DNA of 64,000 nucleotides from contig JAYWIR010000013.1 in NCBI GenBank assembly GCA_036172245.1, forward strand, positions 3,224,001-3,288,000. Direction: 5' to 3'. The notes beneath the pieces are model-generated. The model was not told the DNA's origin. It saw only the letters and a list, made by a program, of their open reading frames with translations, and ran no database searches. The translations under genes were made by a program, and so were the position numbers. The stretch comes from Raillietiella orientalis. Its lineage: Eukaryota. Positions 1 through 47,715 of the stretch are shown here, piece by piece (the stretch's first letter is position 1; every line of letters begins with the position of its first letter).

Positions 1-2107
1 CGAAGAAGTCTCCGACCGCCTTCGCCGGGGTGGACATAGGTAACAGGAGCAGAAGGTCGTCGGCATAGGCTGCTACGGCGGGCGTGCCGGGACACGAGCT
101 AGGCAAGGAGGCCAAAGTCACCCTGTAGGCTCTCAGCACCAACTCAAAGTAGGTGCTGAAGAGCAGGGGACTCAGGCTATCTGCCTGCCTGATGTTTTGC
201 CGCACCGGCACGCCATGCACCTTCTGACTGCTGAAAGAGACGGAAATTATCGCATGGCGCCAGCAGGAGCGCAGGTAGTTGATCAAGGAGGGTGGGAAGC
301 CCATGCGACCTAGGAGCTCCAACAAAAGCCCCTGGTCAACACAGTCGAACGCCTTATGGAGATCGACTGCGAGCGCTAAGGCCCCCTTCCCCGCCCGGGA
401 GTCCATTCCCTGCCCTGCTGGCGGCCCCAAAGTGGGGTTGCCGATTTTTCCTTTCCCTTCCTTTTGACACCTCTGCGCGTGCATCCACGTGCTCGCGAAG
501 AAGAGGTTGGCATCCATACTTCGCCCGGGAACAGCATATGTCTGCTCCGGGCTAATAATGGATTCTGCCACCTGCCCCAGACGCGAAGCCCATAGCCCGG
601 CAACCAACTTGGCGTCCGTATTCACAATCGTGATCGGACGCCAGTTGTTCAAATTCCTAAGGTCTCCCCCTTTGGGAAGGAGCCTCACTCTGGCTGACCG
701 AAACGAGGCGGGAACATCGCCTTCGTCTCGGATCAGCCTTGTCAGCTGAAGCAGCAGGGGTGCCAGCTCTTCCGCGAAGCTCTGATAGAACTCCGCGGGC
801 AAGCCGTCTTCCCCCTGAGCTTTCCGCCTCTTGAGCCTTTTGATACCGGCGAGAATTTCGCCGGAGGTAAAAGGCTCATCGAGGCTTAACGACTCCTCCT
901 CCCCTCTTGCCGGGGCACCATCCGGAAGCAAGAGCCGAGAGGCATCTTGATCCGGGGGCGCCCTGGCGTAAAGGGAGGAATAATAACTCCGCACGAGATG
1001 CCGTACCGACGCCGGGGACGAACATTCCCGGCCCTGGTCGTCCAGCAAGCTGGCCGACCCGGATTGCCAGGCTGGGCGTTCGGCCCCGGCGCGGTACTCG
1101 GCCAGGCGACGGACATTAGGGGTTCGCTCGTACCTACGGGCCTGTAAATAGGCCCGATGGTTGCGAGGACCCTCGCCGAATCCGGAGGGCAGGCGGTCCA
1201 GGGGGACCTGCTCGCAGAATTCCCGGACCGATTCCTTAAAAAGGTCCCAGTCTTGGAGATTCCGGAGCGTGACGCCTCTCAGGTATTCGCGAAGGTGTTC
1301 CTTCGCACCTGAGAGTCGCGTCCAGTCCCCCGGCAGACGCCAGTCTCTGGATGGCGGTCCCTTGTCGCGAGGCCGCATCTCGAAAATTAACCGGGAATGG
1401 TCCGACAACGTTGACGCAACCCTCCCCCGTTTGCCGACCCGTGAACACAGGTCAGCGTCGAGGAAGACGTGGTCGATGCTGCGGACCATTCCCCTCTCAC
1501 CCGCGAACAAGTTGCGCGCACGCATGGCGGCGCACAACTCGTTCATCGCGTTCACCTGTGTTTCCGGCTCACCTGTTAGCAGGCGGAGATTGAAATCTCC
1601 CGCTATCAGGTGAGCCTTCCGCACGCTCGTGTTCGCCAGCCAGTCGCGCTTCAAGGATTCAAGCAGCCTGGTACGGTTGCTATATCCCTTTTGACCGGTT
1701 GGGGCGTACACATTCGTGACGATCAGATCGATCGAGTCCGACCAGCCGAGAGTCAGCTGACCGACCCGACCGTCGTCATCGAAGCGCACGCCCTTCACGG
1801 CAGCGTCGATGGCCGGTTTCACGAAGAACGCGACCCCGCAGGTGTTGCGGATGCCGCATTGCCAGTACAGCCGACCCCCCGCGATCGTCTCGATCTCCTG
1901 GACGTCTGCCGCGGTGATCACGTGGATCTCCTGCAACAGGGCCAGGTCGAACTCCCGCAGGGTGTCGGCTGTATCTCGCCTGTTACCGTCGTCGCGCAGC
2001 CCGTTGACATTCCAACAGGCCGCGCGAATCCGACGGCGACTGGCGAGCCCAGGTGTTACTCCGGGGAAGATGGCAGTGCGGCGTCCGCCACCTGCTGGGG
2101 CGGGACG
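1..2107 (-). CDS. ORF2 of copy A: APE endonuclease + reverse transcriptase (partial, open to the window edge)
   Basis: Manual translation: WNVNGL..LALLQEIH..TNVYAP..AGDFN..IDHVF..SDH (EN), then GEDG..EFY..NWRPITIVNTDAKL..DLHKAFD..IRQADSLSP..YADD (67-56). Same frame throughout; absent from the ORF track because it has no stop inside the window. Confidence 0.93.
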
Positions 2108-3806
2108 CTAGGTGGAGCAGGGGGGTCAGGTGCTGAAGGCACCTGGTCCCCCTCCTCCATCGGTGCCGGCGCGTCGGCCGGATCACCCGCAGGTGGAGTC
2201 GCGCCTACCTGTTCGCCCTCCTCCATGGGGGCGGGCTGTTCAGGGTCGGCGCCGGCAGGGGGGACTTCACCCCCCTGTTCACCCTCCTCCATGGGGGTGG
2301 CCGCATCGACGGCTTCCGAGCGTGGGAATTCCTCCTCCGAATTTCCCACGCTGGCGACGGCTTCCGTCTTCTCCTCCTCGCTGGTGGAGGGAGGCGCCTC
2401 CTGGGCTTCTGGGACTTGCGTCCCGACTTCCTGGGGGGTGCCTCCGAGGAGGAGGATGTGCTTCCGGCCCCCAGGTCTAACTCACCTGTGGGGGCCTTCC
2501 TCGCCGGAGCCGGCCTTCGCACGGCCTTGCGCGAGGGATTCTCACGCTCGGCCAGCGTGACCGCGAGCTCCTCCGCCGCCTGCGCGAACGCGGCGTCCGC
2601 GGTTTCGACCGCCGCTATGTCGCGCGGCTCACCCTCTGTGTAAACAGAGGGTTCGCCGTTACGAGCCTCGGGCGCAGCGGAAACGGCAAGGGAAGGATCG
2701 ACGCTCCGGGTGGCAATCTCGGGAACGACGATTCGTTCGAGTGCCACCGTGCACTCGCGCAGAGTTTTCGAGCGCGGACCGGGTTTTTTTGGCTGTCCGG
2801 CCGTCTTGCGCTCTTTGCTCTCCGCGGGTGGGAGTTTCCTTGGTTTTCTGGCCTCTACAAGCTGCCATCCCTCTTCGCCTTCCACCGTTTCAGAAGGTTT
2901 ATCCTCCGGCTTACGCGCCGGAGGTTGAGGTGTTGGCAGCTTGTGCTGGCCCTTTTCCACTTTAGGTCTAGAGACCTTTGAAGCGCGTTTCCCCTGCGCT
3001 TTTTTCGCGGCAGGGGGAACCGGGGTGGGACGTTTTGGGCACACGCGCCGAACGTGGCCCCTCTCCCCGCACAAATGGCATTGTATATTGGGACACCTTT
3101 TACGTAGGTGTCCCACGGTATCACAATGCCCGCAATACCGGGGCTTCCCTACATACCACAGGTCGACGTTTTCTTGCGCCACCTGTAGTTTGTGGGGAAG
3201 CCCACAATTCTCCCGTACGGTGACCCGCGCTGCAGCCTGCTCACCAAAAAGGCTATCGAAGCCGTCGAAAATGGAGGGTTTCGGCCACAGTGCGTGCACC
3301 TCACCGTACTTTCTCAATTCCTCACCAACCGCTGACCGCGTCATGCGGCTGGTGATGCCAGTCATGCGGACCACCACGGAGCGGTCCATGGATACTGGCA
3401 GGATCTTGCGGCCGTCTACGTTCAGCGGCGCATGGATTAGGCGGTGAGCCAAGGTGACATCTTTGCAGACCACCTCGACCCGCTGCCCGCCGCTGAGGAC
3501 GGAGAGGCCGTCCAGATCCTTCTCTGTAACATTCGCGTCCTTCAACGCTTTGCTGAAGGCGCGCGCTGTCCGGCCGTCGAACAAGTTGCCTACCTGGTAG
3601 ACAAGCGATGGCTTGTACCCGGAGGCCTTGTATGCTGCCATCTCCGCCATGGCTTCTGCGCTGGGCGCGGCCACCATGGCGCTCCATGTCCTCGGCGTGG
3701 CCGGGGATGATTCCGGGGCGGCTGCCCCTGCTCCAGTAGGCTGTGGGGGCGAACTAGCCTCCCCCACTCCCAGCTCCATCGCGGTGTCCTCTGGCGTCGT
3801 GGCCAT
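2056..3806 (-). pseudogene. ORF1 (gag-like nucleic-acid-binding protein) of copy A, one frameshift near 2395
   Basis: MATTPEDTAM start; RRM-like region; CGHCDTVGHLRKRC and CHLCGERGHVRRVC knuckles; acidic PMEE-repeat tail lies in a second frame (2056-2349). Confidence 0.88.
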
Positions 3807-3892
3807 TGGACACCGACGATGTACACAAAACACCACACAGAAGAAAAAGCGCTTTCCTACTACTCTTTGGGGAGTGAAGGAAAAACACGTCC

Positions 3893-5280
3893 TCCTACTG
3901 GCCGCGGAGGAAGCTGGCTGCAACGAGGCTGCCAGCTCCTCCGCGGCTCGCGCGAAGGCTGCGTCGTCGATGGTGGTGTCGATGACGGACGCCGCCGCCG
4001 GCTCGCTCCCCTCGCTGTTGACTGTTTCAACAGAGGGGAGGTCGTCGGTAGCAGCGAGTTCTTTCCGGCAGCGTTCGGCAACATCGAGAACGCGTTCGAC
4101 AACGACGCTGCACTCTTTTATTATCGCGCTACCCTGCTCTTTCTTCTTCTGTTGGTAGGCGATTTTCTTTTCCATCCTCCTCTCCTTCTTTGATTTTTTG
4201 GCCGTTGCCACTTGCCACCCAGTCTCCTGGGCGGCTCCCTCAACTTTTTCGGCGTGGGTCGCCGGGGTCTCGGGTGCGGCCTGGGTCTTGGGCGCGGGTG
4301 GCACAGCCTTCGCGGCAGCTTTCGCCGCCAGTCTTTTCTGCAGAAGCCGGGCGCGTTTTTTAAGGTTTCTCTTGGAAACCACCCGCACTGCTGCTTTTGG
4401 GCACACCTCTCTCGTGTGGCCCATTGTGCCGCATACTTGGCACTGCACATTGGGACACCTCTTTTTGAGGTGGCCCGACGTATTGCAGAAGCCACAGTAT
4501 TTCGGCTCGAAAGAGGTCGACGGTTTCGCCTTCGACCACCAGTTTGTGGGGAAGAGTGCAGCCCTCCCGAACGGTCACGCGCGCAGCAGTGAGGCCGTGT
4601 TGCAGCCCCGTGTAGTCCTCGAAAGGACTAACTTTCGTCCACTGCGCGTGGACCGTTCCGAACTGTTCCAAAGCGGCGCGAACCTGTTCTTTGCGCATTC
4701 GCGCGGTCACGCCTAACAGGTGGACCACCATGCTGCGGTCCGCCGTAGTGGGGAGAAGCCTGCGCGTCCCCATCACAACGGGGGTTTTAAGCAGTCGTTG
4801 GGCCAGCTCTGCATGTTTGCAGATGACCTCAATGTACTGACCCCCGCTGCGGATGGTCATAGCGCTGAGCTCCTCCTCTTTCACATCGAGAGCGCGCATG
4901 CCCTTCGAGAAGGCGCGCGCGCTCTTTAAAGAATATAAATTGCCTACCTTGTAGAACAATGACTGGTTGTACCCCTCCTCTACATAGGCCGACAATTCCG
5001 CCGCGGCTGCAGGCGATGGCGCCGACACAACGGCGCTCCACTCCCGCGCTGCAGCGGGGACCGATTCTGTTGGGGCGGATGCCCCCACCTCCATCGCCTC
5101 TGGGGGCGACGTTGCCGCCGCCCCCTGGATCTCCATCGCCTCTGTGGGCGGCGTTGCCGCTGCCCACTGGCCATCCCTGGTGGTCGCGTCATACATCGCT
5201 GCCTGATCGACCACCGAACCACACGACGCTTGCACTGGGGGAGACTTCCTGGCACGAGGAGCACCGAGAAAACACGTCCA
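3893..5280 (-). mobile_element. Same family, piece C: 5' end and 5' two-thirds of ORF1, cut by copy A
   Basis: 5' motif at 5279-5269; ORF1 homology (YKVGNL..SGGQ..VHAQW..CGFCNTSGHLKKRC..CQVCGTMGHTREVC); frameshift near 4510. Confidence 0.9.
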
Positions 5281-5290
5281 CCCTGGAGCA

Positions 5291-7395
5291 CGCAAGGCGG
5301 TCGACTGTGTAGACCAGGAACTCTTCTTGGAGCTCCTGGTTCGCATGGGCTTCCCACCCTTCTTGATTTCCTACCTGCGCTCTTGCTGGTGGAACGCGAT
5401 AATTTCGATCCTTTTCAGCAGTCAAAAGGTGTATGGCGTGCCGGTTCGGCGGGGTATACGGCAGGAAGATAGTCTCAGTCCCCTGCTCTTTAGCACCTAC
5501 TTTGATTTGGTGCTGAGAGCGTACTGGGTGACTTTGGCCCCTTTGCTAAGCTCGTGCCCCAGCACGCCCGCCGTAAGTGTTTATGCAGACGATCTTCTGC
5601 TTCTGTTACCTGTGTCCACCCCGGCGAAGGCGATCGGAGATTTCTTCGACCTGCTCAGCCGCGGGACCGGACTGCAGGTGAACAGGACGAAGTCGTCGGT
5701 GGTGTCAGTTGGTGCGGCGTGGGCAGGGCAGCAGGACTGGGTTTGTTCGGGGATCCCCATGGCGAGGTGCATCAAGTACCTTGGTGTGCCGTTGGGGGAC
5801 TTCTCCCTTGCGGAAGCGTGGTCCAGCTGCCTCCAAAAAGTCGAGACGGCGATCGGCCCGTTCCTGGAAGGCAAGTTTCACTTGCCGGAACGGGCCGCGG
5901 TGTGGAACGCCTTTGCTGCCCCCATTTTCCGCTTCTTGCTTTTTGTTTGCCCCGCCCCAGGAGTTGTTAAAAGGAGGACGAAGGACCTCCTCCGCATCGC
6001 CCTTTGGGGCAAGGGGAGGCCCCTAGTCTCTTTGAAGGACTTTTGCGCTCCTCGTCGGGACGGCGGACTTAGTCTCCTGACGCTGGAGCGCGTGGAGAAA
6101 CAGCTGCGATGGCGTACCCTTGCCATCGCAGCGAAGATGTGGAGCACCCCGTGGTGCATTCCGGCTCGCCTTCTCGCCAGTCGTGTGTCCCGGTGCGAGG
6201 GACTTGCGTCTTTTCTTCTGTGCCCCGGCCGGAAGATCAGAAGATGAGGCCTACAGCTCGGGCGCATGGCATCGTTGGCCATGGACAACAGCTGGATGGT
6301 TTGCTGCCCCTCCAACTCCTCCGCCTGGCTGGAGGAGAACATCGGAAGGTGGGCTGTGGTGAACCAGATAAGCCACGTAACGTGGAATCGTCTCCGATGC
6401 GGCCCCTACGCCCGCTGCACTCTGAGGAATCTTCTGGAGAATCCAGCTAGAAGCACGTGGGCAGACACAACTTGCCTGGCTACGGCGCTGCCCTTCCTGA
6501 GGAGGGCGCTTGACTGCAGTCGGACGCCAAGGTGGCAAGTCTCCTGCTGCATCGAGGGACGGGAGAAGAGAATGAGCGGCTGGACCATGGGTCAACTGGT
6601 TGACGCCACGACCCCGAGCATCCAGCCGCGAGGACTAAGAAGATGGGGCGATCTGCTGGCCATCCTTATGGATGTGCTGAAGTGGCCCCCGCTTCTTCAG
6701 GAATCCAGGATCCTGCCCCTTAAGTGGAAAGAGTCGGCGTTGCTGTTGTTGCATTGGGGTTTACCCTGCAACGCACGCCGCTCCCACTGGACAAGAGGAG
6801 TTGTGGATCCTGCGTGTGTCAGGTGCGGAGAGCGGGAATCGCTCTCTCACCTTATTGTGGACTGTGCTGCCCTCCGTCCCCTTTTGGAACGGTTTGGGAC
6901 GACCCTCGGTCTCCCTACGGGCAGTTCCCCTAGAGACGTTTTTCGGCTTCTCTTCGCGCGGGACGCCCTGCAGCCAGCCGCAGTCCTTGCAGCCTTGTGC
7001 TGCATCCGAGGCATCGTGGCGGCATGGAGCGACACCAACAAGGGAGGAGTGGGTCAGCACGCGAGGGATGTCATCCCATATGCCCACCGCTTCTTGCGGA
7101 GAGCTGCTGGATGGCCCCAACTGGGGAACATACGGATGGACCTCGAGGGCTTCCTTCAACGGATGGGCCCTCCTCTCAGCGAACAGTGATCCCTTCCCTG
7201 CCCTCCAACCTCTTTTGTTTGTTTGCGTTTTTATTTTTACTTTTGTTTTTTCCCCATCCCTTTTCGCTGCTGGGGAGTGCCACGCCGGGCTGCGTCCCGG
7301 CGTCCCGGTAGGTCCCGTGCATAAGGCCGTGAGCGGGGCCTGGTACCGCAATTGTAGAGTTTTTTATTAATAAACGCCCCGGGCGAACCCGGGTG
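5291..7395 (+). mobile_element. Same family, piece E: 3' half (RT from KAxDCVD, zinc finger, 3' UTR)
   Basis: GIRQEDSLSP, YADD, GLQVNRTKS, KYLGVP, DGGL, CVRCGERESLSHLIVDC; frameshift near 6245; stop 7189; AATAAA 7369-7374. Confidence 0.93.
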
Positions 7396-10085
7396 GCAAC
7401 TCCAAATCCCCGGGGCAGGCGGTGCAAAGGGAAATCCTCGCAGAACTCGCGGACCGAGACCTTCATGCGGTTTCATTCTTCGAGGTTGCGGAGGATGACG
7501 CCTCTCAGGAACTGACGGAGATGTTCCGCCGCACCGGAGATGCGCGTCCAGTCCCCTGGCATACGCCACGCCCTGGATGGTGGTCCTTTGTCGCGTGGCA
7601 TAATTTCGATTATCTACCGGAAGTGGTCCGATAGCGTCGACGGAGGTTTCCCTCGTCTGCCGACCCGTGGGCACAGGTCGGCGTCAAGGAAGACGTGGTC
7701 TACACTTTGGGCCATTTCCGGTAGGTCCCCCAGCAAGTTGCGCGTACGCATAGCGGCACACAACTCGTTGGTTGCGTCTTTTTGCCTGCAAGGCACACCT
7801 GAGAGCAGGCGGATGTTGAAATCCCCTCCGATCAGCTGTGCCTTGCGTACGTTTGTATCCGCCAGCCAGTCGCGCTTCAGGGTTTCGAGGAACCGGGAAC
7901 GTTCCCCGTATCCGCGTCCTCCGCTCGGAGCGTACACATTAGTCACGACAAGGTCGATCGAGTCGGACCACCTAAGGATAAGCTGGCCAACCCGACTGTC
8001 CTTGTCGAATCGTACGTCCTTTACGAAGGAAGCGACTGTTGGCTTCATAAAAAACGCGACGCCACAGGTGTTGCGAGCGCCGCATTGCCAAAATAGACGA
8101 CCCCCTGCGATCCTTTCGATCTCCTGGGCGTTCTCCGCGGTGATCACGTGGATCTCCTGCAGGAGTGCCAGGTCGAAGTCACGCAGGGTGTCGGCCGTGT
8201 CCCGCCTGTTGCCGTCATCGCGCAGCCCGTTGACGTTCCAGCAGGCCACGCGTAATCGACGGCGACAGGCGAGCCCAGGTGTTACTCCTGGGAAAGTGGC
8301 AATGGGGCTCCCGCCACCTTGTCGGGCGGGACGCTAGGAGGAGGGGGTGCGTCGCGCACCGCTTCTCCCTCCTCCATGGAGGACGATTCGTCGTCGGGGC
8401 CTTGCAGAGGAAGTAGGGGTTCACCCACCTGCACATCCTCCTCCATGGGGGTCGCTAGCTGCACGGTGTCGGGGAATGAGATATTCCCACCCTCGCCTCC
8501 CACGCTGCCGGCTTCCCCCTCGGGGGCCGATTCATCCGCCTCCTTATTGATCCGGATGCGCCTCCTGGGGTTCTGAGACTTCCGTCCCGTCTTCTTTGGT
8601 GGCGCCTCCGCTGAAGAGGACGCACTTTCGACGTCCGGATCGGCCTCACCTGCCTCCGGAGCCTTCCTCGCGGCCGGCCTTCGCAAGGCTTTTCGCGAGT
8701 TCTTTTCACGGCCTTGCAGTTCAGCCGTGAGTTCTTCCACCGCCTGCTGGAAGGCGGCCTCCTCGATCGCGTCGAGCGTGGCGCGCGGTTCCCCTTCTGT
8801 TTCGCCAGAGGGTTCACCATCGACCGTCGCGGCTTCGGCGGACGCGAGGGGGGGGATTGCTCCCCCGGTGGCGGCATCGGGTGCCTCCACACGTTCTAAT
8901 TTTACCGAACACGCGCGGAGCTTTTCGCGGCACGGTTTTTCGCGCTGCGTTTTTGTTTTCACCGCGTTTCGTTCGGGACTCCCGGGTTTTCTTCGTGGCT
9001 GTACCGTCTGCCAGCCTTCGCCGTCACCAGCGTCGTCGGGAGTGTTCTCAACCGACGTTTGCTGTGAGGGCTTAGGGACTGGCATCTGGCTTTTTACAGC
9101 CTGTTTCAGGTTATTCACACCTCTCCCGCCCGTTTCCCCTTTGCCTTTTTTGCAGCGGATGGGGGCGGGATTTCTCTTCTTGGGCACACCTTACGGATGT
9201 GGCCCTTATTTCCACATAAGTGGCATTGGATGTTAGGGCACCGCTTTTTTAGATGCCCTGTAGCATCGCAATGGCCACAATACTTGGGCTTTCCCACGTA
9301 CCAAAAATCGACTTTTTCTTCGCCGATATTCAGTTTGTGGGGAAGCCCACCATTCTCTGGTAGGGTGACGCGGGCTGCGGCCATCCCACTGAATAGCCTT
9401 CCGTACGTTCGGAAGACATTGGGTTTGGCCCAATACGCGTGCACACTACTATGCTTCGACAACTCCTCATGGACGCTGGTTTTGTCCATTCGGAGTGATA
9501 CGCCCGTGAGGTGGACCACGACGGAGCGATCCTCCGTCACAGGGAAGATCCTGCGGCCGTCCACCGTAATAGAGGTGTTCAGCAGTCGCTGCGCCAGACT
9601 TGCCTCTTTGCATGTCAGCTCAACTCGCTGGCCCCCACTAAGGACGGATAGGCCTAAAAGGTCTTCCTCCCTCACGTTCAACCTTTGCAGCTCCATTTCG
9701 AAGGAGCGTGCAATTTTTTCATCAAACACACTGCCTACCTTATAGATCAGAGACGGCTTGTAGCCGCTGTCCTTGTAGGCAGTCTGCTCCGCTACTGCAT
9801 CCGGGGATGGTGCAGCAACGACGTCACTCCAACTCCTCGCCAATGGCAAAGAGGGTCGCGAAGGGGTGGTTGCCCCCGATTCCGATGGGACAAGTGCCCC
9901 GGATTCCGTGGGGGCGGATGCCCCCACTTTCATTGGTGGAGGAGAGCATGTCGCTTCTCCTCCTACAACTTCCATCGCAGTGTCCTCAGGCATTTCTGCC
10001 ATGGGACACCGGTACTCCCACACACCAGGCAACCAACGAAAAGCTTCCCACTAACCAATCCGTGGAGCGATGCCAAACCACGTCC
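7396..10085 (-). mobile_element. Same family, piece B: 5' end, ORF1 (10002-8282, frameshift ~9180), endonuclease and start of linker
   Basis: 5' motif GGACGTGGTTT at 10085-10075; ORFs 9115-10032, 8282-9187 and 7614-8249 match copy A ORF1 and EN. Confidence 0.93.
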
Positions 10086-10094
10086 GCTCCCTAG

Positions 10095-10700
10095 AACGAC
10101 ACGGGGAAGTGTGAATCCTAGCTGTGCCAGGTGTGGGGAGCAGGAAACCCTCCCGCACCTTTTAGTTGACTGTGTTGCCTTCCGGACCCTATGGGAACGG
10201 TTCGGTCCCACCTTAGGGATCCTGGAAGGTAGCCCTCCCAGAGACTTTTTTTGGTTCCTCTTTGTACAAAACACCCTGCAGCCAGCCGCGGTCCTAGCAG
10301 CTCTCTGCTGCGTACGCGGCATTATGGCAGCTTGGAGTGGATCCGACCAAGCAGAAGATGTTAACGGAAGGGATGCCATGGAGTATGCAGCTCGTTTTCA
10401 GCGAATAGCATCCCGATGGCCCACCTGGAAAATCTGTACCAGGACCTCGTCGGCATCCTGCAAAGGATGGATGCTCCACGCAACGGACAGTGATCCCCTC
10501 CCGGTCCTCCAGATGACAAGTGTTTTCCTGTTTCTTTATTTTTTATTTTTGTTTTTTCCCCAACCCCATCCGTTTACGTGGAGTGTCAAGTCGGTCTGCG
10601 CACCGATCACCCGACAGTTCTACAGAACTATTGGCCGCAGCGGGGCCTTGTACCGCAAATTCTGTAAGTTTTTGAATAAACGCCACGGCTTGACCGGGTG
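10095..10700 (+). mobile_element. Same family, piece F: zinc-finger region and 3' UTR
   Basis: CARCGEQETLPHLLVDC; 3' UTR alignable to E; AATAAA 10675-10680. Confidence 0.9.
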
Positions 10701-10704
10701 AAAA

Positions 10705-12168
10705 CGTCGAACCGTACGCTATGTACCGTATGCATGATGGCCGGCTGTATCAGGAAGGCCGTCTCTTTCGCTTTACGGGCGCCGCACTGCCAATGCAGCA
10801 TTCCGCCCGCGATCCGTTCGATGTCGGCGGCATCCTCGTACGCGATCACGTGGATCTCTTGAAGGAGCGCCAAGTCAAAGTTTCGTAGGGCGTCGGCTTT
10901 GTCGCGTCTTTTCCCGACGTCGCGCAGGCCTTTTACGTTCCAAACGGCCACGTGCATGCTACGGGAGGACGCGACTCCACGTGTTACTGCTGGGATTCTG
11001 GCAGTGCAGTCCCCTTCTGGCTTGCAGAGGGCGCTTTCTCTTTGGGAAAAGGCATTTCTCAGACTTCCGAGGCACTCTCTATGCCTTCCTCACCTTGAGG
11101 CGGGAAGGACGTGATTGCCTCCTCGAAGGAGTCCCGTGAGCCTTCCTCCATCTTCTCTGGGTCAGAACCAGTGTCGTTCTACCTTTGCAGGGATACTTCC
11201 CTGTGGACGGCTTCGGCATGGCGCGCAAACGTGTAGCGTGGTCCCTCTACGGGAGGCGCCGGTTCCGCGTTCGCCTCTACCACGGAGATCGTGCAGAGCG
11301 ATTCTTTTGCGGTGGGTGCGCGTATAGCGTCCTGAGCTGCTCTCGCGGCCGCACGCGTCATGACGCTGGGGCGCTTTCCAGAGGTTGGCGAAAGATTTAC
11401 AGGCCTGCCGCTGGGTACTGCTGGTGAGGTCAACAACCTTGACGACCTGCATGCTGTAAGTCCCGTCTACGTGCACTCGGTCGCGGGTGGTGCGACCTTG
11501 TCGTTCTCCGTAGGAGGTGGGACGGTGCGCTGAGGCCGCAGCTTCCACGTTTTTTATTTTCTCGAGTCGTGGAAGGACTTCGCGAGCAATCTGCGGTTTC
11601 TTCTTCTTTCTTTTTTCAACCTTTCGTTTTTTTCGATTGGTGAACTGCACTCAGCCTGCTTCCTCTTTTCCCTCTTCGGCTTCTGCATGGCTGCTCGCCG
11701 CAGGTGCAGGTGTAATGGATGCCGTTGGCTGTGGGTCACCTTCCGGAATCGCCTTAGATGCGGAATTGGCTGAGAGAGCTCGATTGTTCTTATTTTTTTA
11801 TTCCTTCTATTTTAAATTATTTTTTTCCAAGGGTGCTTCCCCTTGTATCAGACGTTGACAAGTTTCCTGCCGACGTCAAATCTGTGGGGTAACGGACGGT
11901 AGTGGCCGCAAGCAGACCAAGTTCTTAAACGACAGGTGGCATGTCGATGTCACAGGGCGGTTCCCATATTTTCTAGAGACAGAAGTTAGCTTCTTCGCGG
12001 TCTGATCAGTGGCCACTGTGAGGCTACTGATCAGATCTATTGGTCCCTGGTATGCAGGGATGACGTAGAGCTTCGCCCACAGTGCGTGCACCGTCGCGAA
12101 CTACTCCAATTTCCGGTGGACAGTCTCCTTGGTCGTCCTTAACGTGATGCACGATCAGGAAGCGGTCG
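10705..12168 (-). mobile_element. Same family, piece D: decayed 5'-truncated ORF1 plus N-terminal endonuclease
   Basis: VHALWAK near 12090; MHVAVWNVKGL..LALLQEIH..VRFD (10957-10705). Confidence 0.82.
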
Positions 12169-12740
12169 TGATTGACGTCGTTACGAACGTCTTTGCGCCG
12201 AGCGGCTCCCACCTGCATAGGGAACAAAATGACTTTTCGACTCCCTGTAGCGCAGATGGCTGGCGGTTGCAGGCGTGTGCAAAGTCCACCTGATTGCAGG
12301 CGACGGCAACATGCGTCTGCTTTCTGGTGGGAACATCGCCGAACTCCACCACGTCAACGAGCTGTGCGCGTCCGTGCGCACGCGCAACTTCTTTGACGGC
12401 GACCGAGGAGTGGAAAACAGCATCGACCACGTCTTATTCGACGAGCACCTGCGCGCGCGGGTGGGTCGCCGGGCTAGGATGCCGTCTTAGCTGTCGGACC
12501 ACCTCCGAATTAGGTTCGAAATGCTGGCACGCCAGAAAGGCCGCGAAAGCCAGAAAGGTCCTCCGCTTGGCGTATACCGAGAGAATGAATGCGTTTCCCC
12601 GAAGCTGTGGAGCACCTCCGTTGCTTCCTGCGAGGAGCAGCAGTGCAGAGACTCGAGGATTGGGACTCTCTGAGGCGCTAGGTCCGAGAGTTCTGCGAAG
12701 GATTCCCGATGGGCTGCTTTACCACATGTTTGGGCGTTGC
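12168..12740 (+). mobile_element. Same family, piece G: C-terminal endonuclease and start of linker
   Basis: IDVVTNVFAPSG, HLIAGDGN, NELCASVRTRN, IDHVLFD, SDH, VREFCE. Confidence 0.85.
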
Positions 12741-14030
12741 CATGCTGTTACGCCGGGGCGTTTATTTAAAACTGTTCTATACGGTTGTAGTACAAGACCC
12801 CACTGATGCCAACACATCATGGAACCTTCCGGGTCGCCGGTACGCAGACCGACTCGATTCTCCTCGGCAGCAGGGTAAGGGGGAAAAAAAGAAAAAGAAA
12901 AGAAAAATCAAGAAAAGAAACACTTTGGAGGGCTGGGAAGGGATCACTGTTTGCTGGGTGGAAACTTCATCCTTTGTCGAGGTCCATTCGTATGCTTCCC
13001 AAATGAGGCCATCTGGTCTCAATTCGCAGGAAGCGAGCTGCAAGTTCAATGGCGTCCCTTTCGTTGTTTCCTCCGTTGACGTTACTCCGTGCTCTCACAA
13101 TACCTCGGACAAAGCAAAGTGTTTCCTGGGCTGCCACTGAGCGTCCTACGCGAAGACGAGCCGAAAAACATCCCGGAGTCCAGTGTTGCGGTGCGCGTTG
13201 CGTGGAAGACCCCAGTGCAACAGCAGAAGCACCGTTTTCTGCCACTTTAGGGGGAGGATCTTCGATCCATTCAATACTGGGGGCCACTTCAGGTCATCCG
13301 TTGGAATGCCGAGCAGCTTGTCGCATCTCAGTAATCCACGCGGAAGGACGCTCGGGATCGTGGCGTCCGCATGCTGTCCCATGGTTCAGTTGCTTAAATT
13401 CTTCTCCCTACTTGCGATACGGTAGGAGACTTGCACCTCGGCGTCCAGCTGCTGTGAAGCGCCCTTCTAAAATAGGGCATCGCCGTAGCTAGGGGGGTCT
13501 TCTCTGCCCACGTCCTCCTGGCAGACACTGCAGTATGTTCCGCAGTGAGCAGCGGGCGTAGTTGGAGAAACGCAGGTAGTTCCAGCTGTCACTTACAGAT
13601 CGATTCAGCATCGTCCACGTGCCAATTATTTCCTCTAGTCATGCGCTTGAGTTGGCGGGGCTACAGGTCATCAAGCCCTTGACCAGTGTGGCCATGTGTC
13701 CAAAGATAAGGCTGCATCTGCTCATCTTCCGGTAGGGGCACAAAAGATGAGATGCCAGCGCTTCCGTCGAGGATATACGGCGGTTGAGGCGGAATGGAAC
13801 TCACCAAGGGGTGCCCCTATACTTCGCTGCGATGTCCATGGTACGCCATCGCAGCTGAATCTCCATCCGCTCCGGTGTCAGGAGGCCGAGACCGCCGTCC
13901 TAACGCGGAGCACCCAAGTCCTTTGAAGGCACCCGGGGCTTCTTGTTGCCCCACAGGGAGATACGTAGGGGATCCTTTGTCCTTTTCTTCAATTGAGGGG
14001 GTACGGAGCAAACAGCTGCTGGAGCATGAT
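12741..14030 (-). mobile_element. Same family, piece H: 5'-truncated 3' fragment inserted antisense into G/I
   Basis: Reverse complement aligns to E ~5930-7395 (KWPP..KILPLKW..LLHWGLP; 3' UTR; TTTATT at 12761-12766). Confidence 0.87.
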
Positions 14031-14049
14031 TAAAACCTCCCTTCGAGAC

Positions 14050-15960
14050 CGGTTAAGGCTAGGGTGTTTGGAACGAGTATACTTGAAAGCTCGTCGCTAC
14101 ACCCAAACACCAGACATCCGCCGACTGGCAGAGTACTAAGCCAGGGCCGTACGGTAAACCTGGCAATCCGTGTCAGCCAGCCTCCTAAACGGTGATGACC
14201 AGGAGCACTCGAACGGCAAGAAGGCAGCCTGAGTCCCTTGCTCTTCAGCACCTAGTTTGAGCTGGTGCTGAGGGCTCACAGGGATACTCTAGCTTGCCTG
14301 CAGCGCAATTGTCCCGGTACGCCTGCGGTGGCAGCGTATACGGACGATTTTCTGCTGCTGCTCCATATGTACACCCCGGCGTCGGCACTCGAAAATTTCT
14401 TCGAGCTGTTGGACCGCGATACAGGACTAGAGGTGAACAGTGTGTAGTCGTCCGTGGTAGCAGTCGATTCGGTGTGGGCAGGACAGCCGGACTGGATCCT
14501 CCTGGAGATCCTCATGGTTCTGTACTTTAAGTACCTTGATGTACCATTGGAGGAGTATTCTTCGCCGGAGACGTGATGGTCCAGATACCTCCAGAACAAG
14601 CAGAGTTGGAATCTTTTCGTTCCGGAATGGCAAGTTTCTGTCGCCGGAACGGGCCGGGGTGTGGAACGCGTTTGTGGCCGTTCTCTTCCTCCCTCTGCTT
14701 TTGGTTTGCTCACCACCAAGTAGCACGAAGGACCTCCTGAGGAATAACCTCTGGGGCAAAGGAAAGCCTGAGTCTGCCTGAAGAACTTGTGCTCTCTGCG
14801 TCGCGACGGAGGTCTCGACCTTCTCACGTTAGGGCGCTTATAGCGGCAGCTCCAGTGGGAGATGCTTGCCCTAGCGGCAAAGCTTTGGAGCACAAACTGG
14901 TGCAAGAGCGCACTTTACCTGGACAAGCGAGCCATCGGCCACTCGGGACTATGTTCGTTCCAGACGCCGCGGCGCAGACGAAACGTGTCCAACTGTGGAC
15001 TAAAGCTCCAGAGGCTGGCCAATCTGACCAGAAACGACAGCTGGATCTTCTGCCGGCCCGCCGACGGTGGTACCTGGATGCAGAAAACCGTTTGCACATG
15101 GGCCATAAACAATAAAGCGAGCAAGAAGTTGAGGCAGTGGCCACTACTTCTTGCTCTACAACAACTGATGGCTTCAGGATATCACTGCGCGGCCCACCAC
15201 CACGTGTGCGTGGTCGCAAAGAGCATTCCTAGCCGCGTCAAAGTTCTTCCTCAGGTAGCACTTGGGCAGTAAATAGACAGCCAAATAGGAGGTCAGTTGC
15301 GAAACAGGTCTTTGCACGAAGGAATTAAATGGTTGGATTACGGACCAGCTCAAGGACGGTGCGACCCTACGGACTAAAAGGACTATTGCGCTAGGATGAG
15401 CTACTGGGAATCAACAGGAGGACTTCGAGTGGTCTCCAGCGCTAAAGAGCAATCCGGTCCTCCCTTGAAGTGGCAGAATTCGGCACTTCTGTTGTTGCAC
15501 AGGAGTATCCCGTGCAACGCCCACCGGCCTCTCTAGACCTGGGGACTGTGGATCCCAATCATCCTACCGCACCCGCTTGTAGACTGTGTTGCCTTCCGGT
15601 TCATGTGATTGCGTTTCGCAACGGCCCTTGGGGCATCAAAGGACAATCCTAGAGACCTGTTCTAACGCCTCTTCGTGCGCGATGCCCTTTCGTCTGCCGC
15701 ATCCCTAGCAGTTCATTGCTGCTGCCTTTTCGAGACTGTAGCGTCCTTATCCTACGCGAGAGGAATACGGCGCGAGAGGGACACTATCTACCTCGCTCTG
15801 TGCTCCATGAAGACGGCAGCTGGATGGTCCCGGCGGCAGGGATATACTCAGACGGAACTTACCGGCCTCCTGGGAAAAATGCAGAGGAGACCCTTCAGCA
15901 CCAGGTGATCCTTTTCCTCAGCCTCTCAACTATTGCATGTCGTTTGCACATTAACTATTC
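14050..15960 (+). mobile_element. Same family, piece I: continuation of G (linker, internal deletion near 14210, decayed RT and C-terminus)
   Basis: VYLKARRYTQTPDIRRLAEY matches copy A AYLQARRYERTPNVRRLAEY; RQEGSLSP, AYTDD; GTGATCC 3' UTR start at 15905. Confidence 0.85.
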
Positions 15961-16039
15961 ATTATTCTCTTCGATATACTGCTGAAGGACTCCAGGAAGT
16001 GGTTCACACTCCAGATGCTTTCATGCTGACTGCTTCCAC

Positions 16040-17150
16040 GTAGGAGTTACTCAACGCGAACATTGAGAAGCCAGACCTCGAAGGGTTCTTGGTGAGCGGA
16101 GGTGAAGTTGTTGACCTGATCCACAAAGTGACAGCCCTTGCTTAGCGACTGCTAAACACCCATGACCATCGATGGCAAGAGACTTTACCATGAAACGTTG
16201 GATCACTCAGTAGTGATTCACCTGAGAGGTTCACGGTTGCATTTGGACTCGCCTGAAGTCCTCCGTCAGCTCAAAGAATAGGAGGCGGTCCACGCTCACT
16301 GGACCAGGCCAAACTGGCTCTCCGGATATGAGGGATCGTTCATCGTCTGGGCTGCAGCGCGCTTGACCGACACGGAGGGAAGCAACTTTCCTGCCGTATG
16401 GAAAAATGGGGACTTTACGTCGATCTCTGCTTTCCCAGGAAACTAAAACTCCTCAACCAGTGCAATAAAACCGGGAACTTGAAGACGTGGTGTCCGGAAA
16501 TTAGGAGCCTTGACCGCGGACTGAAGAACCACATAAAGTTTGTGTTCCTAAAAAGACTCGTCGGCGACATTTCGCGCTCAAAGTACAAGAAAGGCATTGT
16601 GAGCAAAAGAACGGAAGGAAAGGGAGGAAGGAAGAATCTCCATCACAGACAAACCAGACTTCATCGGAAGAAACTTTTAAAAGAGGGGGAAAAAATGAGC
16701 GACGGAGAACAATGGCAAGTGTCAACACCAAAAAAGGAAGAGGAAAAACCTCCCGAAAACCAAAAAGGCGACGGCAAGGCGATAGCTAAGCAGCACCTCA
16801 AGGCGGCTCTTCAGCAGGTCAGAGCGATCGAGGGGACCATCAGAAAGGCAGCCGTGAAAAGCGCTGTCGACGAATCGATCGATAGCCACGAAGGTCTTTG
16901 CAGCGTTAGGGGCATTTTTTGGAGAAGGCGGTGGCACCAATCCCTTTGAAAATAAGGGCCTCGAGAAAGAAAAGGGCTGTATGGCGTTTCTGAAGGGTCA
17001 ACTGAACTCGAGCATGGCTATGTACTCCAACCTGAATAAGTTTAGCATCAGCGGAAGCAACGGGAACCTCCTCAAAAAGACCCGAGGCCCCGAGAAAGAA
17101 TGCTTTCCCCCAGGAAAATAAGGCATCAGCTCGGAAAAGCAGATGGGTTT
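16040..17150 (+). mobile_element. Same family, piece J: heavily decayed ORF1
   Basis: NIEKPDLEG..SGGEVVDL..RLLNT..IDGKRL, DHSVVIHL, VHAHW, AAARLT, eroded knuckle CNKTGNLKTWCP, GEQWQV. Confidence 0.72.
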
Positions 17151-34850: not shown

Positions 34851-36184
34851 GCGTCAGCTACAATGCACGATTCGATACGACCAAGATTGGCATGGAAAAG
34901 GCAGGTACATAGGAATGCTTGCTTCTTTCTTTCACTTTCTCCCAGAAGCTCCTTACACAGGAGAACAAGGACGCTTCCGGGTTCCGCTTCCATGCATCCT
35001 CGCTTCTGTCTTCCCACTTCACATCCAGCCTCCGAGCTGCCTGTCGAACGTGAGCGGAAAAGATATATGTGCATCCTATCCAGAGTCGGATTCCGCTCGG
35101 GCAGGAAGCAGAAATTCTCGGATAACTGGGATCACTTGTCGCTCACAACAGGAAGGCTCCCAAAAATTCAGCGAAGCTGACTTGAAACAGGATTCGAAAT
35201 CGAGATGGTCGCTAGAAGTTGTTGGTAGCGGTGTGCCAACGGCTGCGATCCAACTCGGGACGTCAGAGACCGGGTTGATGCATTCCCAATCCATGGATGC
35301 GAGCGCCAGGAAACCTGGAGGTTGCGCGACCCCAGAGGAACGGCATTGCTGCGCTCCCGACCACAGCTCGTTGCACAACCCCCCAAGCGACATAAGGCAG
35401 AAAGCAGCAACTCTTGGAAAGTTCACATTCAAATTTATTTGAGCAAAAAAGTCCAGGTTAGGCCTGAGCCTCAGGGCGGCACCCTGAATGCGGGATGCAC
35501 GGCCGGGATACGATCACCGCGATGCGGAGCCATCTTCGCAAGGTGGCAGACTGCGGGACGAAATCCGCTCTCTTTGCTTTCCTCGATCTTCCTTGCCACC
35601 TCTCCCTCAATGGCGTCGCTCCGGATGCAGCTCGTCGCAACGAGCGCGTGGCGACGGGTGGGTGTCTCGCGAGACCTCCGACGGAATGGACCTCGAAGGG
35701 CGCATTAGCGAAATTCGCCGGAGGCAAACCCACTGCAAGGGTGGTTCCAGCGCTGCAGGAGCATCCTCCGTTCCTACCGCATCTTTCCATCCTACAACCG
35801 CTCCACAGCAAGGCACGCCCCAACACCCCAAGCAGTTTACAGCCTGAGGGGAAAAACACACCGATTCTCTGGGGTGTTCGCAACCCACGGCCTCGAAAGC
35901 CGACCCCAGCCCCCCAACCCACGCGCACCACTCGCCTAACGTAGGAATCGCCGGACTCATCTCCACAACCTCAAGACAAATCCGCAGCTTCCACCAACAA
36001 GGTGACATTTTCGTGCTGTAGGTCCAACCATCTGTGAACGAAATGGGACGGTAAGAATGTACTCCGCAAAGATGGGGGAAAGAAGGAGGTTTGCCAAATA
36101 GGGGGAGAGGGGGAATGGGGAACAACCCAAAAATTGGCACTAAAAAGAAAGCATCGTGCAAATACAGAGCACAGTCGCCACCAT

Positions 36185-37565
36185 TTTTGCTTACTTTTTC
36201 TTTTTCGTTTTTTAGTTTCCTTTTCTGCATTTTCTTTGCCTCATTTTTTCCTTTCCTCTTCTTTATCGCTTTCCATTTTTTCCTCTTTTCTCAGCTTTTT
36301 TTTTGTTTGTTTCCTTTTTATCTCTCTCTTTCATTGTTTTGTTTTCCTTCTTTTTTTCCCCATTTTTATTTCCTCATTTCCTTGTTTTTCTCTTTTCCTT
36401 TTGTTTCTTTCCTCTTTTTCACTAATTTTACTTCTTTCCCTTTCTTTCTCATTTCTCCCTTTTTTCTTCTTCTTTTCTCTCCTTTTTGTTTTTTTTTCCT
36501 TTCCTTTCCTTTCTTTTTTTCTTCCTTTTAAGATTTTTTTCATATTCTTTTTCTTTCTTTATTTTCATCTTTTTAATCTCTTTTCTTTTCTATTCTTAAT
36601 TATTTCGATATGTTTTGTCCATTTCTATTCAATTCTTTCTCTCTTCTTTTTTTTTTTCTATCTTTTCACTGCCCAGTGTTCCCTTCTTCCCTTTTTTTTT
36701 CTACTGCTTTCTCCTCTTAGTGTTCTTCCTTTTGCTTTCTCCATTTTTCTGTCTCTTTTGGTTTTTTGTGTTCTCTATTCTGTTTTTTATGTTCTATTTT
36801 TTTTTATTTTTTTTTTCTCCTCACTACTTTTCCTTTTGTTTTTACTCCTTTCTCCTCTTAGTGTTCTCTTTGTTTTCTCCTTTTTTTTCCTCTTTTCTTT
36901 TTCTATTATTTCTCCTCTCTCTCCTAGTGTTCCCTATTTTTATAGTTTTCTTCTTTTTTTCCTCCACCTTTTCTTTTTTTTTTTTTTTACTGCTTTCTCT
37001 TCTTAGTGTTCTTCTTTTGGTTTTCACGTTTTGTTGGTCTCTTTTCTTTTTCTTCTCCTTTCTCCCCTAATGTTCCTCATTTTTGAGGCTCTCTTTTCAG
37101 TTTTCCTTCTTTTTTTCTTCCTTCCCTTGCTATTGTCCCTTTTTTTTGTGTCATCTCTTTTTGTATCTTTTCTTTATCTCCTTCCTCAATGTAGGGCTCT
37201 TCTTTTCTCCTCCATTTTGTGTTCCGTTTTGTTTTTTGTTTTCTCTCTCCTTTGTGCCTTGGTGCTGTTTTGTTTCTTCCTGTTTTTCTTCTTTTTCTTT
37301 CTTTTTGTTTTTCTCTGCTTTCTCCTCTTAGTGAATAGTTGGAGTTAGGGCGTTTCCCTTAGTGACCTTTTTTTCCTCTTCTTTTTCTCTCCTTTGTAAT
37401 CCGTTTCCACATCTCTGTTTTCTCTCCTTTGTTCTTTGGTTTTTATTTCTTTTTTTTCCCTCTATCCTTTCGCCTTCTTTTCCTTCCCTTCTTTCCTTTC
37501 CTCTGCACCCCTTCTTTGTTCTTCTTGGGAATGTTTTCTCTTTCCTTCTTTCTCTTTTCCTTCCC
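36185..37565. repeat. ~1.4-kb T/C-rich low-complexity tract with an embedded repeated ~25-bp motif
   Basis: Nearly pure pyrimidine on +; motif like TACTGCTTTCTCCTCTTAGTGTTCT near 36702, 36843, 36911, 36988, 37053 and 37314. Confidence 0.92.
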
Positions 37566-43975: not shown

Positions 43976-44899
43976 AACTCAGAAGGGGCGCTGCAGCTTC
44001 CCGCAGGAAATCGCTCTCGCTTCCTTGTGCACTCTGTGAAGAGGCGACGACTCGGAGGGTCCCCCGGTGAGGAGGGGGGGGTTTGCTCTCCGTTGCACGA
44101 CAGAAGGGGGAACTCTCCACTCCTTGATTCCTGGGAGGACCCGAAGGTCGACTCCCATTGTTCCGGCCTTCATCGGGGGCCTCCGGTTTTATTCACCGAC
44201 GGTGCCACGCCCGAATGTCTCGGCCAACCAGCGCCATTGCAGGAGAAACTCGGAACCCGACGACGCAGTGGCGTCACAGTTTCATGCCGAAGTATTCGAA
44301 CCCGCGACGCCCGGGGCCACGCGCGGAAGCCTTAACCACACAGCCTCCGACGCGGGCTGGCCGAGCGGCAATCATCCAGAACTTCGCCGCAAGGACGAGT
44401 TTTCTGGATTGTGCTGATGCTCCTTTCGCTCCAGCGTACGCAGGCCAACACCATCCATCCCGGAGTGAAGCTCGCCTGTGTTTGGAGCGGACTCTAGACC
44501 CCAGCGTGCCCCACGGGACTTATCGTAGGAGGTGCTCTGTCCGCTCTTCGATTTCAAACGGATCGATGCAAACGGAAGGTACAAGGGAAGGACTACGAGT
44601 TCTTAGGTGGACAAAGAACTCAACAGTTGGCTCCAAAGAAACAGTCTCCCAGCCCGATGACACGGATTGGCAGTATCCATCAGCTCACTGTCCTTGCAAA
44701 TTCCTTAGAGTTGAGAAAGTTTCTTAGAGAACAAATTCCAGTGGAACTCAGAACTTTCTCCTCTGAGGAGAAAGCTCTTCTGTCCTGATTGGTAATGTGG
44801 AAGCCCACGTTTCCTGCCCAGCAGGAATTATAATTGATTGGACTAAAAAGACCCAAGGGTGATCTTGCAAGAATGCGGCAAGCTGCCTCAGCAGGAATA

Positions 44900-46149: not shown

Positions 46150-47336
46150 TTTGGCTGCCTTCACCCGCCCCAAGGTATGAACATGCGGTTTCTTCATCGG
46201 TCGCGTGGTAACCCTGGCGAAGGAAAACCGCAGTTGCATGGTTTGCTACTCCGCTCACGCCAGTGCCTAGCTAGAGAAAACAGCTGGCACGTCCGAGCCG
46301 ACATCCGAGAATTGGAACTGATACCGCGACTCTGCAACCGCGCCAGCTGCTCGCTGAGGAAGTCCCTGAAGTGTCTCAGCAGCAGCACATGGGCGGATAC
46401 GACCCCTTTCCTCTTCCGCCACAGTGATGCCCTTCTTGAGGAGAGCACTTGTCAGTAGCCAAGCGCCGAAATGGCAAGTCTCCTGAGAGATCTCAGGCAG
46501 ACGGAAGTGGATGAGGGTATGGACCATTCGGCAGCTCACGGATGCTGCGATCCCAAGTGCCCTTCCATGAGGATTACAGCGCTGGGGCGAGCTGCTCGGT
46601 ATACCATTCAAAGATCTGGAGTGGTCTCAAGTGCTCAACAATACCAACACCCTCCCGGAAGTGGTAGGAGACGTCACTTCTGCTACAGCACTAGGATCCC
46701 CCCTGCAGCGCAAGCCGAAGCCACTGGACTATGGAGAGGGTGAGAACGGACACTGTTGCCGGTGAGAGAAACTGGAACCCCCCCCTCACATTCCAGTGGA
46801 TTGTGTTACCCTCCGGTCCCTATGGAAACGTTCCGAAACGACCCTCCGGATACCAATTGGCCTCCCCAGTAACGTTTTACGGTTCTCCTTCGTGCGTGAT
46901 ACCTTTCAGCTAGCCGCAGCCCTAGCAGCACTTAGCTGCATCCGCGGAAATGTGGAGGCGTGGAGCGAAGCCAATGGAGGAGGAAACGTGGAAGAGACCG
47001 TCCGATTCGCGATTCGCCTTCTGTAGATAGCGCCCAGATGGCTCCCACTGAGCAGTATACGAACGGATCTTCCCGGCATCCTGCCAAAGGATGCAGACTC
47101 CCTCCAGGGGCAGGCATTTCCGCCCGGTCCTCCAGATTGTTTCTTTTTATTTTTGTTTCTTTTTTTGTTTTATTTTTGTTTTTGGTTTTTTTCATCACTC
47201 TCCGTTGCCTAGGGGAGTCCAGCCGGTCTGCGCACCAGTGACCCGGCGGGTTCATTGTAAAATCGGGAGGCCGCATGCTCTGCCACGATAGTTGCAGGTT
47301 TCTTGGTTTCAAGAAACACCAGGGTGTGACCACGTG
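46150..47336 (+). mobile_element. Isolated 3' fragment (piece K) of the Tx1-like family from 1-17 kb
   Basis: Aligns to E 6220-7395: STWADT, WQVS, QLAAALAALSCIRGNVEAWSE, T-rich 3' UTR, terminal CACC..CGTG. Confidence 0.85.
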
Positions 47337-47715
47337 GCAATTCCAGGCACCACTTGCCCGTTGGCTGGGTTCCTCCTCCACGATATTGCCCCTGACGATG
47401 AATGGCTATTGAGCGAGGGTGAGAGATGCACAGGGACGAAAGGGGAAAGCGAGGGTCCGGCATGGGGTCCGAGCGGGGCGATGGATAGGAGAGCAGGATC
47501 CCGCCGGTGGTCGTAAGAAGCGGAAGCAGAGAAAGGCGACAAGCATTATCGTAGCAACGGAGCATTGTTTTCCAGGATTGTCTCCCTTCGTCTCTCTCGT
47601 TCCTACTTGGGCGTCCCTCTTTACCTTGCGGAAAGAAGGAGAAGGACCAGAAGAAGAAGCAACCGAGATCGTTTTGGAGCATGGAACCCCAGTGATGGTG
47701 TCGTCTTCCTGGATA

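Follow-up and report, generated by a model that had tools for sequence, protein, structure and literature searches.

The 64,000-nucleotide stretch of Raillietiella orientalis DNA analysed here (the window; G000:C13:3,224,001-3,288,000, in an assembly of 210 Mb and 491 contigs) begins with a stack of ten abutting retrotransposon pieces, which derive from eight or nine long interspersed nuclear elements (LINEs) of the L1 group, Tx1-like in character, and our analysis confirmed that this stack is real. We read the locus, with a probability of about 0.8, as the outcome of repeated target-primed insertions by several sequence-specific subfamilies of these elements into the coding DNA of sister subfamilies. 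The evidence that carries this reading comes from copies across the genome, which revealed that each subfamily uses its own nucleotide position inside sister subfamilies, mostly in antisense orientation. Throughout, reference positions are counted along copy A, the leftmost piece of the stack, whose 5,637 bases lie partly in the window and partly in the DNA on its left, and the piece letters are our own, differing from those of an earlier note on this DNA whose claims are taken up below.

Each subfamily has its own landing site in sister subfamilies

To define the landing sites, we used 105 5' ends verified by profile among 129 motif candidates; most of these loci were collected by similarity to A, B or D, which biases their subfamily content and not their flanks. 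For B, 33 of 35 5' ends lay at antisense position 3523, in the codons of KAFD, a core motif of the reverse transcriptase (RT), with the other two in tandem, while A ends fell at sense 1366-1367, in the first open reading frame (ORF1) of B, in 18 of 22 cases (4 tandem). The D ends were at antisense 5021-5022 in 17 of 27 cases (4 tandem, 6 elsewhere), and C ends divided equally between one site (3 of 6) and tandems (3). The 3' ends added further recurrent sites at antisense 2003, 2029, 2119, 2642, 2722 and 3295 and at sense 2292.

Genome-wide, we counted 3,088 occurrences of the 3' motif, as compared to 4 for a reversed control. Subfamily-specific patterns recovered 129 B-type and 213 A/C-type 3' ends, both of which are lower bounds since the pattern excludes T at the last place. 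Judged by eye among the 100 B rows listed, about 82 ran directly into antisense KAFD-like codons and nearly all of the remaining 18 retained TCG or TCGA. Among the 100 A/C rows listed, likewise judged by eye, 17 of the 18 with a TAAA tail were at the ORF1 site of B, versus 1 of the 82 others, about 40-45 of which resembled the 2722 site.

These insertions were independent events and not copies of one composite, because the hosts are far more divergent than the inserts: median identities of the inserts were 97% for B (n = 21), 94% for D (n = 17) and 98% for A (n = 20), whereas the hosts at the same insertions were 70%, 64% and 76% identical, with no host pair at 99%. Both junctions, with their duplication, were read in L181, L188, L199, L005, L011 and L019. 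Target duplications measure 9-16 bp, and candidates were present at 44 of 127 ends, some by chance. Use of sites was also reciprocal, with A found inside B and B inside A. All same-subfamily contacts that we examined were on the same strand, consistent with tandem arrays at a duplicated target, and self-avoidance is not absolute, as 2 of the 100 listed B rows carry the KAFD spelling of B itself.

Several loci depart from the simplest form of these patterns. At some B insertions (for example C50:489926, C11:3049858 and C28:2885416) KAFD is preceded by residues unusual for the family, and B may thus also land in RT genes of more distant LINEs. In two chimeric copies (L017 and L018) the 5' part is of A type and occupies the ORF1 site of B, and the 3' end is C-like and occupies the 2722 site; both are probably products of ectopic recombination. 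Nested junctions at L208-L210, L190/L191 and C416 are exactly or near-exactly duplicated on different contigs, reflecting either recent duplication or assembly redundancy.

Element ends, the 5' target leader and the choice of site

The 3' end consists of the motif plus exactly four element bases, mostly NNAA, after which the duplication starts: tail position 3 is A in 126 of 129 ends and position 4 in 120 of 129. There is no poly(A), an A-run of six or more occurring at one of the 129 ends, and off-site 3' junctions showed no target bases beyond the four-base tail. Folding of the 3' ends gave z scores of -0.69 for C, +0.30 for E, -1.33 for A and -3.60 for B, and a shared terminal hairpin is suggestive only. 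At the other end, all subfamilies retain GGACGTG, placed 8-14 bases in from the 5' terminus. In the available text of a study of L1Tc, jockey, Doc, G, I, F, SART1 and TRAS1 are described as having a downstream promoter element (DPE) at +28 to +32 (PMC4748587), and the same spacing for GGACGTG would place transcription start in or just before the 5' duplication.

Evidence that the RNA carries a copy of the target at its 5' end came from A, B and D insertions. Empty B sites read AA in 18 of 18 cases, whereas the filled 5' sites of A read GC in 11 of 17, with more non-host bases upstream, which differs from both the empty sites (0 of 18; p = 3e-5) and the 3' copies (0 of 9; p = 0.002). The A copy in the window belongs to these 11, with the lineage GC at 3901..3910 as opposed to the host AA version at its own 3' end and at empty sites. 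L186, a B insertion, likewise has the lineage spelling on its 5' side and the host spelling on its 3' side. The clearest case is L104, a D copy that sits in non-family, AT-rich DNA: its 3' flank duplication was predicted from the 5' flank and then found (9 bp), and the duplication is separated from the element by 13-16 bases that belong to the canonical ORF2 target and are otherwise absent from the locus. In L105 a 25-bp duplication is followed by filler and then the leader, and in four further D cases (L225, L228, L231 and L001/L109), read on the 5' side, 12-13 leader bases stand beside foreign DNA. Since off-site D copies carry the canonical target beside their own duplication, the RNA of D probably includes the parental target. 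The presence of 12-16 canonical target bases at the 5' end of off-site full-length D copies is new here; the same test has been applied to melanogaster-type R1 (available text of PMC2718515).

The DNA at these junctions can also fold back. Host DNA 30 bases upstream forms a strong hairpin with the 5' junction of A (window 3901-3947; z = -4.66), and fresh fold-back copying at every A insertion could be proposed as a general cause of the non-host bases; it is less likely, because in several forms the non-host bases extend further than the exact upstream arm does. In L086 the D leader was likewise seen folded back. No 3' motif was present in the stretch examined for the 3' end of L127.

We propose that the endonuclease would first nick the subfamily-specific site, supplying most of the site choice, and that reverse transcription would begin at the fixed 3' end of the RNA. 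Transcription would start either at the 5' duplication or immediately ahead of it, with the DPE-like GGACGTG following about 24-27 bases downstream, and the target copy in the RNA (the 5' leader) would anneal to the upstream target, giving seamless 5' joints and favoring full-length copies at the canonical site, such that every insertion would re-create a landing site. A leading role for the enzyme is consistent with the specificity changes that endonuclease swaps cause in SART1 and TRAS1, as given in the available text of PMC7265360, and with the endonucleases of our subfamilies differing in their loops.

It is possible, although we consider it doubtful, that target copies at the transcript ends set the site more than the endonuclease does, such that a transcript starting (and perhaps ending) inside its parent's duplication would let a lineage switch sites without changing its enzyme. 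Such RNA inheritance is attractive because the endonucleases of A and C are 92% identical, with the same loop before SIDH, yet almost never share sites, because the 5' leader is observed, and because the 3' junction has a fixed length without poly(A), as if read-through RNA paired with the primer; R1, too, sometimes copies downstream 28S bases (available text of PMC2718515). Against it, the off-site 3' junctions of L026, L177 and L221 hold no target bases beyond the four-base tail, A and C do differ in the loop after YAP, the SART1/TRAS1 swaps alter specificity, and a 5' leader comes into play after nicking and cannot determine where the nick falls. The subfamilies form a natural panel of close endonuclease variants with different targets, and the A/C pair, near-identical enzymes with different targets, makes the choice between enzyme and RNA directly testable. 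If RNA inheritance were true, the outcome would be a web of retrotransposons that sustains itself while its members disable one another, addressed by a short tag open to natural reprogramming.

Several points weigh against insertion into fixed sister sites as we propose it, among them leakiness. In the first 77 3' ends along contig C1, taken in order of position, 27 were flanked by family DNA (17 antisense, 10 sense; 0 with shuffled flanks), a lower bound set by profile sensitivity that compares to an expected share of at most 8.3% (3,088 ends treated as full length over 210 Mb) and of 4.6% in ten loci with a chance motif. The other 50 of 77 were outside family DNA, so targeting is a preference. 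Full-length copies taken in order of position were in family DNA in 8 of 10 cases (p = 0.013 versus 27/77), a share that purifying selection and the loss of off-site full-length copies could inflate. The earlier note had expected copies elsewhere to be flanked mainly by the family itself, which holds for full-length copies (these 8 of 10, and 102 of 105 in the set collected by similarity) and fails for 3' ends.

The remaining points concern the leader, the promoter and the assembly. L199, a B insertion, has the host spelling on both sides, such that the leader is not always used; the first leader bases of L104 could copy local host DNA, leaving 13 or fewer as certain; both junctions were read for the leader only in L104 and L105; and the stretch examined for L228 did not include its 3' end. 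Transcription start and the promoter role of GGACGTG are putative, deduced from motif spacing, and an initiator at the predicted +1 is not convincing (CA at 0.25, versus 0.00-0.23 at nearby offsets). Finally, one sequencing run, which contained 0.22 of the words searched, gave contigs that do not span the stack, leaving the assembly unconfirmed; no RNA run was listed.

Leakiness is also what a looser specificity would produce. An endonuclease motif of 4-6 bases, combined with retention in open or tolerant chromatin and loss elsewhere, fits the 50 off-family ends, the off-site insertion sites that have just the first 4-6 bases of the target in common with it, and the clustering of full-length copies, for example at 2.34-2.58 Mb of contig C5. 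We nevertheless regard it as improbable, because a motif that short recurs within the 5.6-kb element, yet B and A ends concentrate at a single position each, and because A and C have a common C-rich start and common clusters, yet use different sites. Across the assembly, full-length copies are strongly clustered (G000:C5:2.33-2.58 Mb and 3.49-3.60 Mb; C1:8.01-8.06 Mb; many contig ends), unlike truncated copies, which are scattered.

Not all off-family ends were without a pattern. Seven of the 50, all TCAA-tailed (L029, L042, L153, L154, L162, L166 and L167, possibly joined by L129), share a single insertion position in a separate non-coding repeat whose copies are 70-77% alike and contain a B-box-like word, and which is probably a short interspersed nuclear element (SINE). 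We considered whether these hosts were instead distant family members and rejected this, as they look non-coding and carry the B-box-like word. ARAGORN found no tRNA in the eight loci with this SINE-like target, and a comparison with Rfam turned up nothing in either the window or 18 loci.

Structure of the stack and its left flank

With a profile made from natural copies of the elements, window positions 1-16,600 were tiled by ten pieces on strands -,-,+,-,+,-,+,-,+,+ (Table 1), reproducing the abutting pieces and the orientations that the earlier note had described. The 5' motifs end at 3892, 5279 and 10085 and the 3' motifs at 7395, 10700 and 12741, as also read earlier, with the true termini lying slightly further out, 8-14 bases past the 5' motif and 4 bases past the 3' motif. 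H, J and K represent a single host divided by I, and ORF1 of A encodes two zinc knuckles. Contrary to the idea of one family throughout, the pieces belong to different subfamilies, of which there are at least ten, with reference copies about 60-87% identical.

Table 1. Pieces of the stack, their positions in the window and their landing sites.
Feature	Position	Strand	Content	Landing site
A, 5' two-thirds	1..3900 (profile tile 1-3892)	-	5' end, ORF1, ORF2 endonuclease, most of RT; complete A copy 5.64 kb	ORF1 of B, sense
5' copy of A's target duplication	3901..3910	-	GC variant of A lineage	
B, 5' part (ORF1)	3911..5293	-	GGACGTG at 5273-5279 plus 14 element bases beyond; remainder left of window, split by A and G	KAFD codons of C, antisense
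C, 3' part (DLHKAFD to 3' end)	5294..7399	+	motif 7369-7395, 4-base tail 7396-7399	reference ~2720 of D, antisense
D, 5' half (ORF1, endonuclease, linker)	7400..10096	-	motif 10079-10085 plus 11 element bases beyond	directly upstream of ORF2 zinc finger of E, antisense
D target / 5' leader, 13 bases	10097..10109	-	same sequence beside D copies inserted elsewhere	
E, 3' 0.6 kb (zinc finger)	10097..10704	+	3' end at 10700, 4-base tail	reference ~2119 of F, antisense
F, decayed ORF1 and endonuclease start	10705..12160	-	without 5' motif; same subfamily as H	
H, second half of endonuclease	12177..12736	+	host of I; continues in J, K	
I, 5'-truncated, 1.3 kb	12737..14040	-	3' end at 12741	same ~2720 site as C, antisense; degenerate duplication on both sides
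J+K, continuation of H	14049..15966	+	reference 2707-2874, deletion, then 3702-5488; heavily decayed	
L, old ORF1 fragment, distant subfamily	16033..17150	+	best match 71% among loci compared	

The left-to-right decay described in the earlier note exists as a broad trend and not as a strict order. Identity to the best other copy falls from 99% for A and 97% for B to 91% for E, 83% for F, 82% for H and about 70-76% for I and K, and ORF2 has gained stops along the way, none being present in A and 14 in K. The sequence of identities is broken by C (93%) and D (97%). The value for C sets aside one 1.7-kb contig that is identical to C and starts at the B/C junction without extending across it.

Evaluating 40 kb to the left of the window, we found the first two steps of what nesting had been predicted to leave there. 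The full length of A is present, its 3' terminus lying 1,745 bases outside the window, and is followed leftward by the remainder of B on the same strand, which is split again by a 3.1-kb insert, G, in sense orientation with a 15-bp duplication; G itself contains a 0.2-kb antisense insert at KAFD with an 11-bp duplication. B continues past DLHKAFD and has a normal 3' end about 9,070 bases outside the window, where the 5' stub of an older B adjoins it in tandem; beyond this stub lies an internally deleted copy of D. The remaining predicted steps were absent, as these 40 kb held neither a 5' half of C or E nor a 3' half of D or F, and a later deletion or recombination may have taken out most of the left half of the nested stack.

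Missing left halves, the exactly duplicated loci L208-L210 and L190/L191, and the lack of independent reads across the stack are what a misassembly, or the segmental duplication of one composite unit, might leave behind. We consider either very unlikely, and an assembler artefact in particular, because the junctions of the window match base-exact sites that recur across many contigs, in hosts that have diverged. The earlier note had also weighed, alongside nesting, a series of 5'-inverted (twin-primed) elements, which is less credible still. It is refuted for B, which continues to its own normal 3' end, and for the young B/C and D/E pairs; adjoining pieces come from different subfamilies, and the B, C, D and E junctions are found again in other hosts, complete with both flanks and duplications. 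F (-, reference ~530-2120) and H (+, from 2169), neighboring parts of one subfamily in opposite orientation that are collinear in a relative on contig C36, do fit it, and F may represent a 5' inversion of H or may have inserted into H in antisense.

Insertion into fixed sister sites, on the other hand, is the pattern at the junctions of A, B, C, D, E and I, all of which are sites used by the same kind of element elsewhere in unrelated hosts. The nesting suggested earlier is upheld in this respect, with the qualifications that the target is usually a sister subfamily and not the element's own copies, and that nesting is not purely antisense, given that A and G are in sense orientation, as are 10 of the 27 family-flanked 3' ends along C1. 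Taken as a whole, the earlier interpretation is partly supported.

Outside the stack, the window holds more decayed fragments of the same family at 44375-44592 (-) and 46167-47345 (+), and a T-rich low-complexity tract of about 1.4 kb at 36181-37565. A 251-aa open frame at 51067-51822 (-), in AT-rich DNA, has a weak match to MFS_1 and is probably an exon of a host transporter gene; a homologue search with this frame gave no match.

Family assignment and comparison with known systems

Assignment to the L1 group follows from domain content and behavior. ORF2 matched PF03372 (APE endonuclease) and PF00078 (RT) above the Pfam cut-off and, weakly, PF13966 at its C-terminal cysteine finger, ORF1 has two zf-CCHC stretches, and the elements make target-site duplications and are frequently 5' truncated. 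The endonucleases of the subfamilies are about 50-92% identical to that of A. Protein database searches gave no close or named Tx1 relative, the best matches being unnamed and 21-35% identical. Look-alikes of ORF1 in the Atlas were CCHC and ZCCHC3-type RNA-binding proteins (0.92-0.95), which we treat as a lead. ORF1s with RRM-like domains and CCHC knuckles, a type that ours resembles, are consistent with Tx1 according to the available text of PMC5203782. A target preference is, by the rule in the available text of PMC4494074, more than 20% of flanks of one kind, which our 27/77 exceeds overall and single subfamilies exceed by far. The label Tx1-like reflects this architecture and behavior.

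The junction of the two frames differs among the elements. In A and D, ORF2 has no ATG and TAACA follows the ORF1 stop, which suggests reinitiation without AUG, while B has an overlapping stop-start TAATG between ORF1 and ORF2 (window ~2025-2035 and ~8280-8290; L001 ~7870). We take these arrangements to resemble the coupling in SART1.

Transposon-targeting Tx1 families, nested Zepp clusters, ORF1s of this type and R1 leaders are all known. Our literature search, which covered few subscription papers or Repbase Reports, found no web of ten or more sister subfamilies with base-exact sites in one another's ORFs, including a site on core RT codons, and the available portions of PMC9004415 and of preprint 10.64898/2026.09.17.752431 added nothing specific. 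Such a web could serve as a model for rivalry between transposon lineages and for the growth of gene-free repeat clusters.

Among solved structures, human LINE-1 is the best relative of both ORF2 (human L1 ORF2p, E 1e-50) and its endonuclease (E 6e-8), from which our elements differ in having no poly(A) tail, zinc knuckles in ORF1 and long, subfamily-specific sites. Zepp of Coccomyxa/Chlorella and ZeppL of Chlamydomonas share L1-group membership and nested clusters (PMC3446292, PMC8226300), and, as far as the available parts of these papers describe them, Zepp is strictly confined to a single cluster on each chromosome, made up largely of 3' ends, and ZeppL does not occur elsewhere. In the present assembly, by contrast, 3' ends are found genome-wide and all along C1, two or more clusters lie on C5 alone, and sites are separate for many subfamilies.

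R1A of the Drosophila melanogaster group, as described in the available text of PMC2718515, resembles our elements in its off-site full-length copies with parental target bases at the 5' end, its duplications of about 14 bp, its tandems via the 5' duplication and its off-site targets that share 4-9 bases. There, however, the target is 28S rDNA and the leader is upstream sequence ending at -9, whereas in our elements the duplication itself forms the leader and the target lies in an ORF of a sister LINE. Target-specific LINEs of the Tx1 clade have in common with our elements an L1-group architecture, a preference for a fixed site in another repeat, duplications, tandems around a duplication and leaky specificity. 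The targets given in the available text of PMC4494074 are DNA transposons, LTR elements, RNA genes and microsatellites, such as the Tx1D DNA transposon for Tx1, Mariner-N4_AMi for Tx1-Mar and LTR elements for Tx1-8_Crp and Tx1-4_AMi, with Keno, Kibi and Koshi also target-specific. The elements described here differ in that they target coding positions of sister LINEs, at ten or more sites, and in that they use one another reciprocally, A landing in B and B in A.

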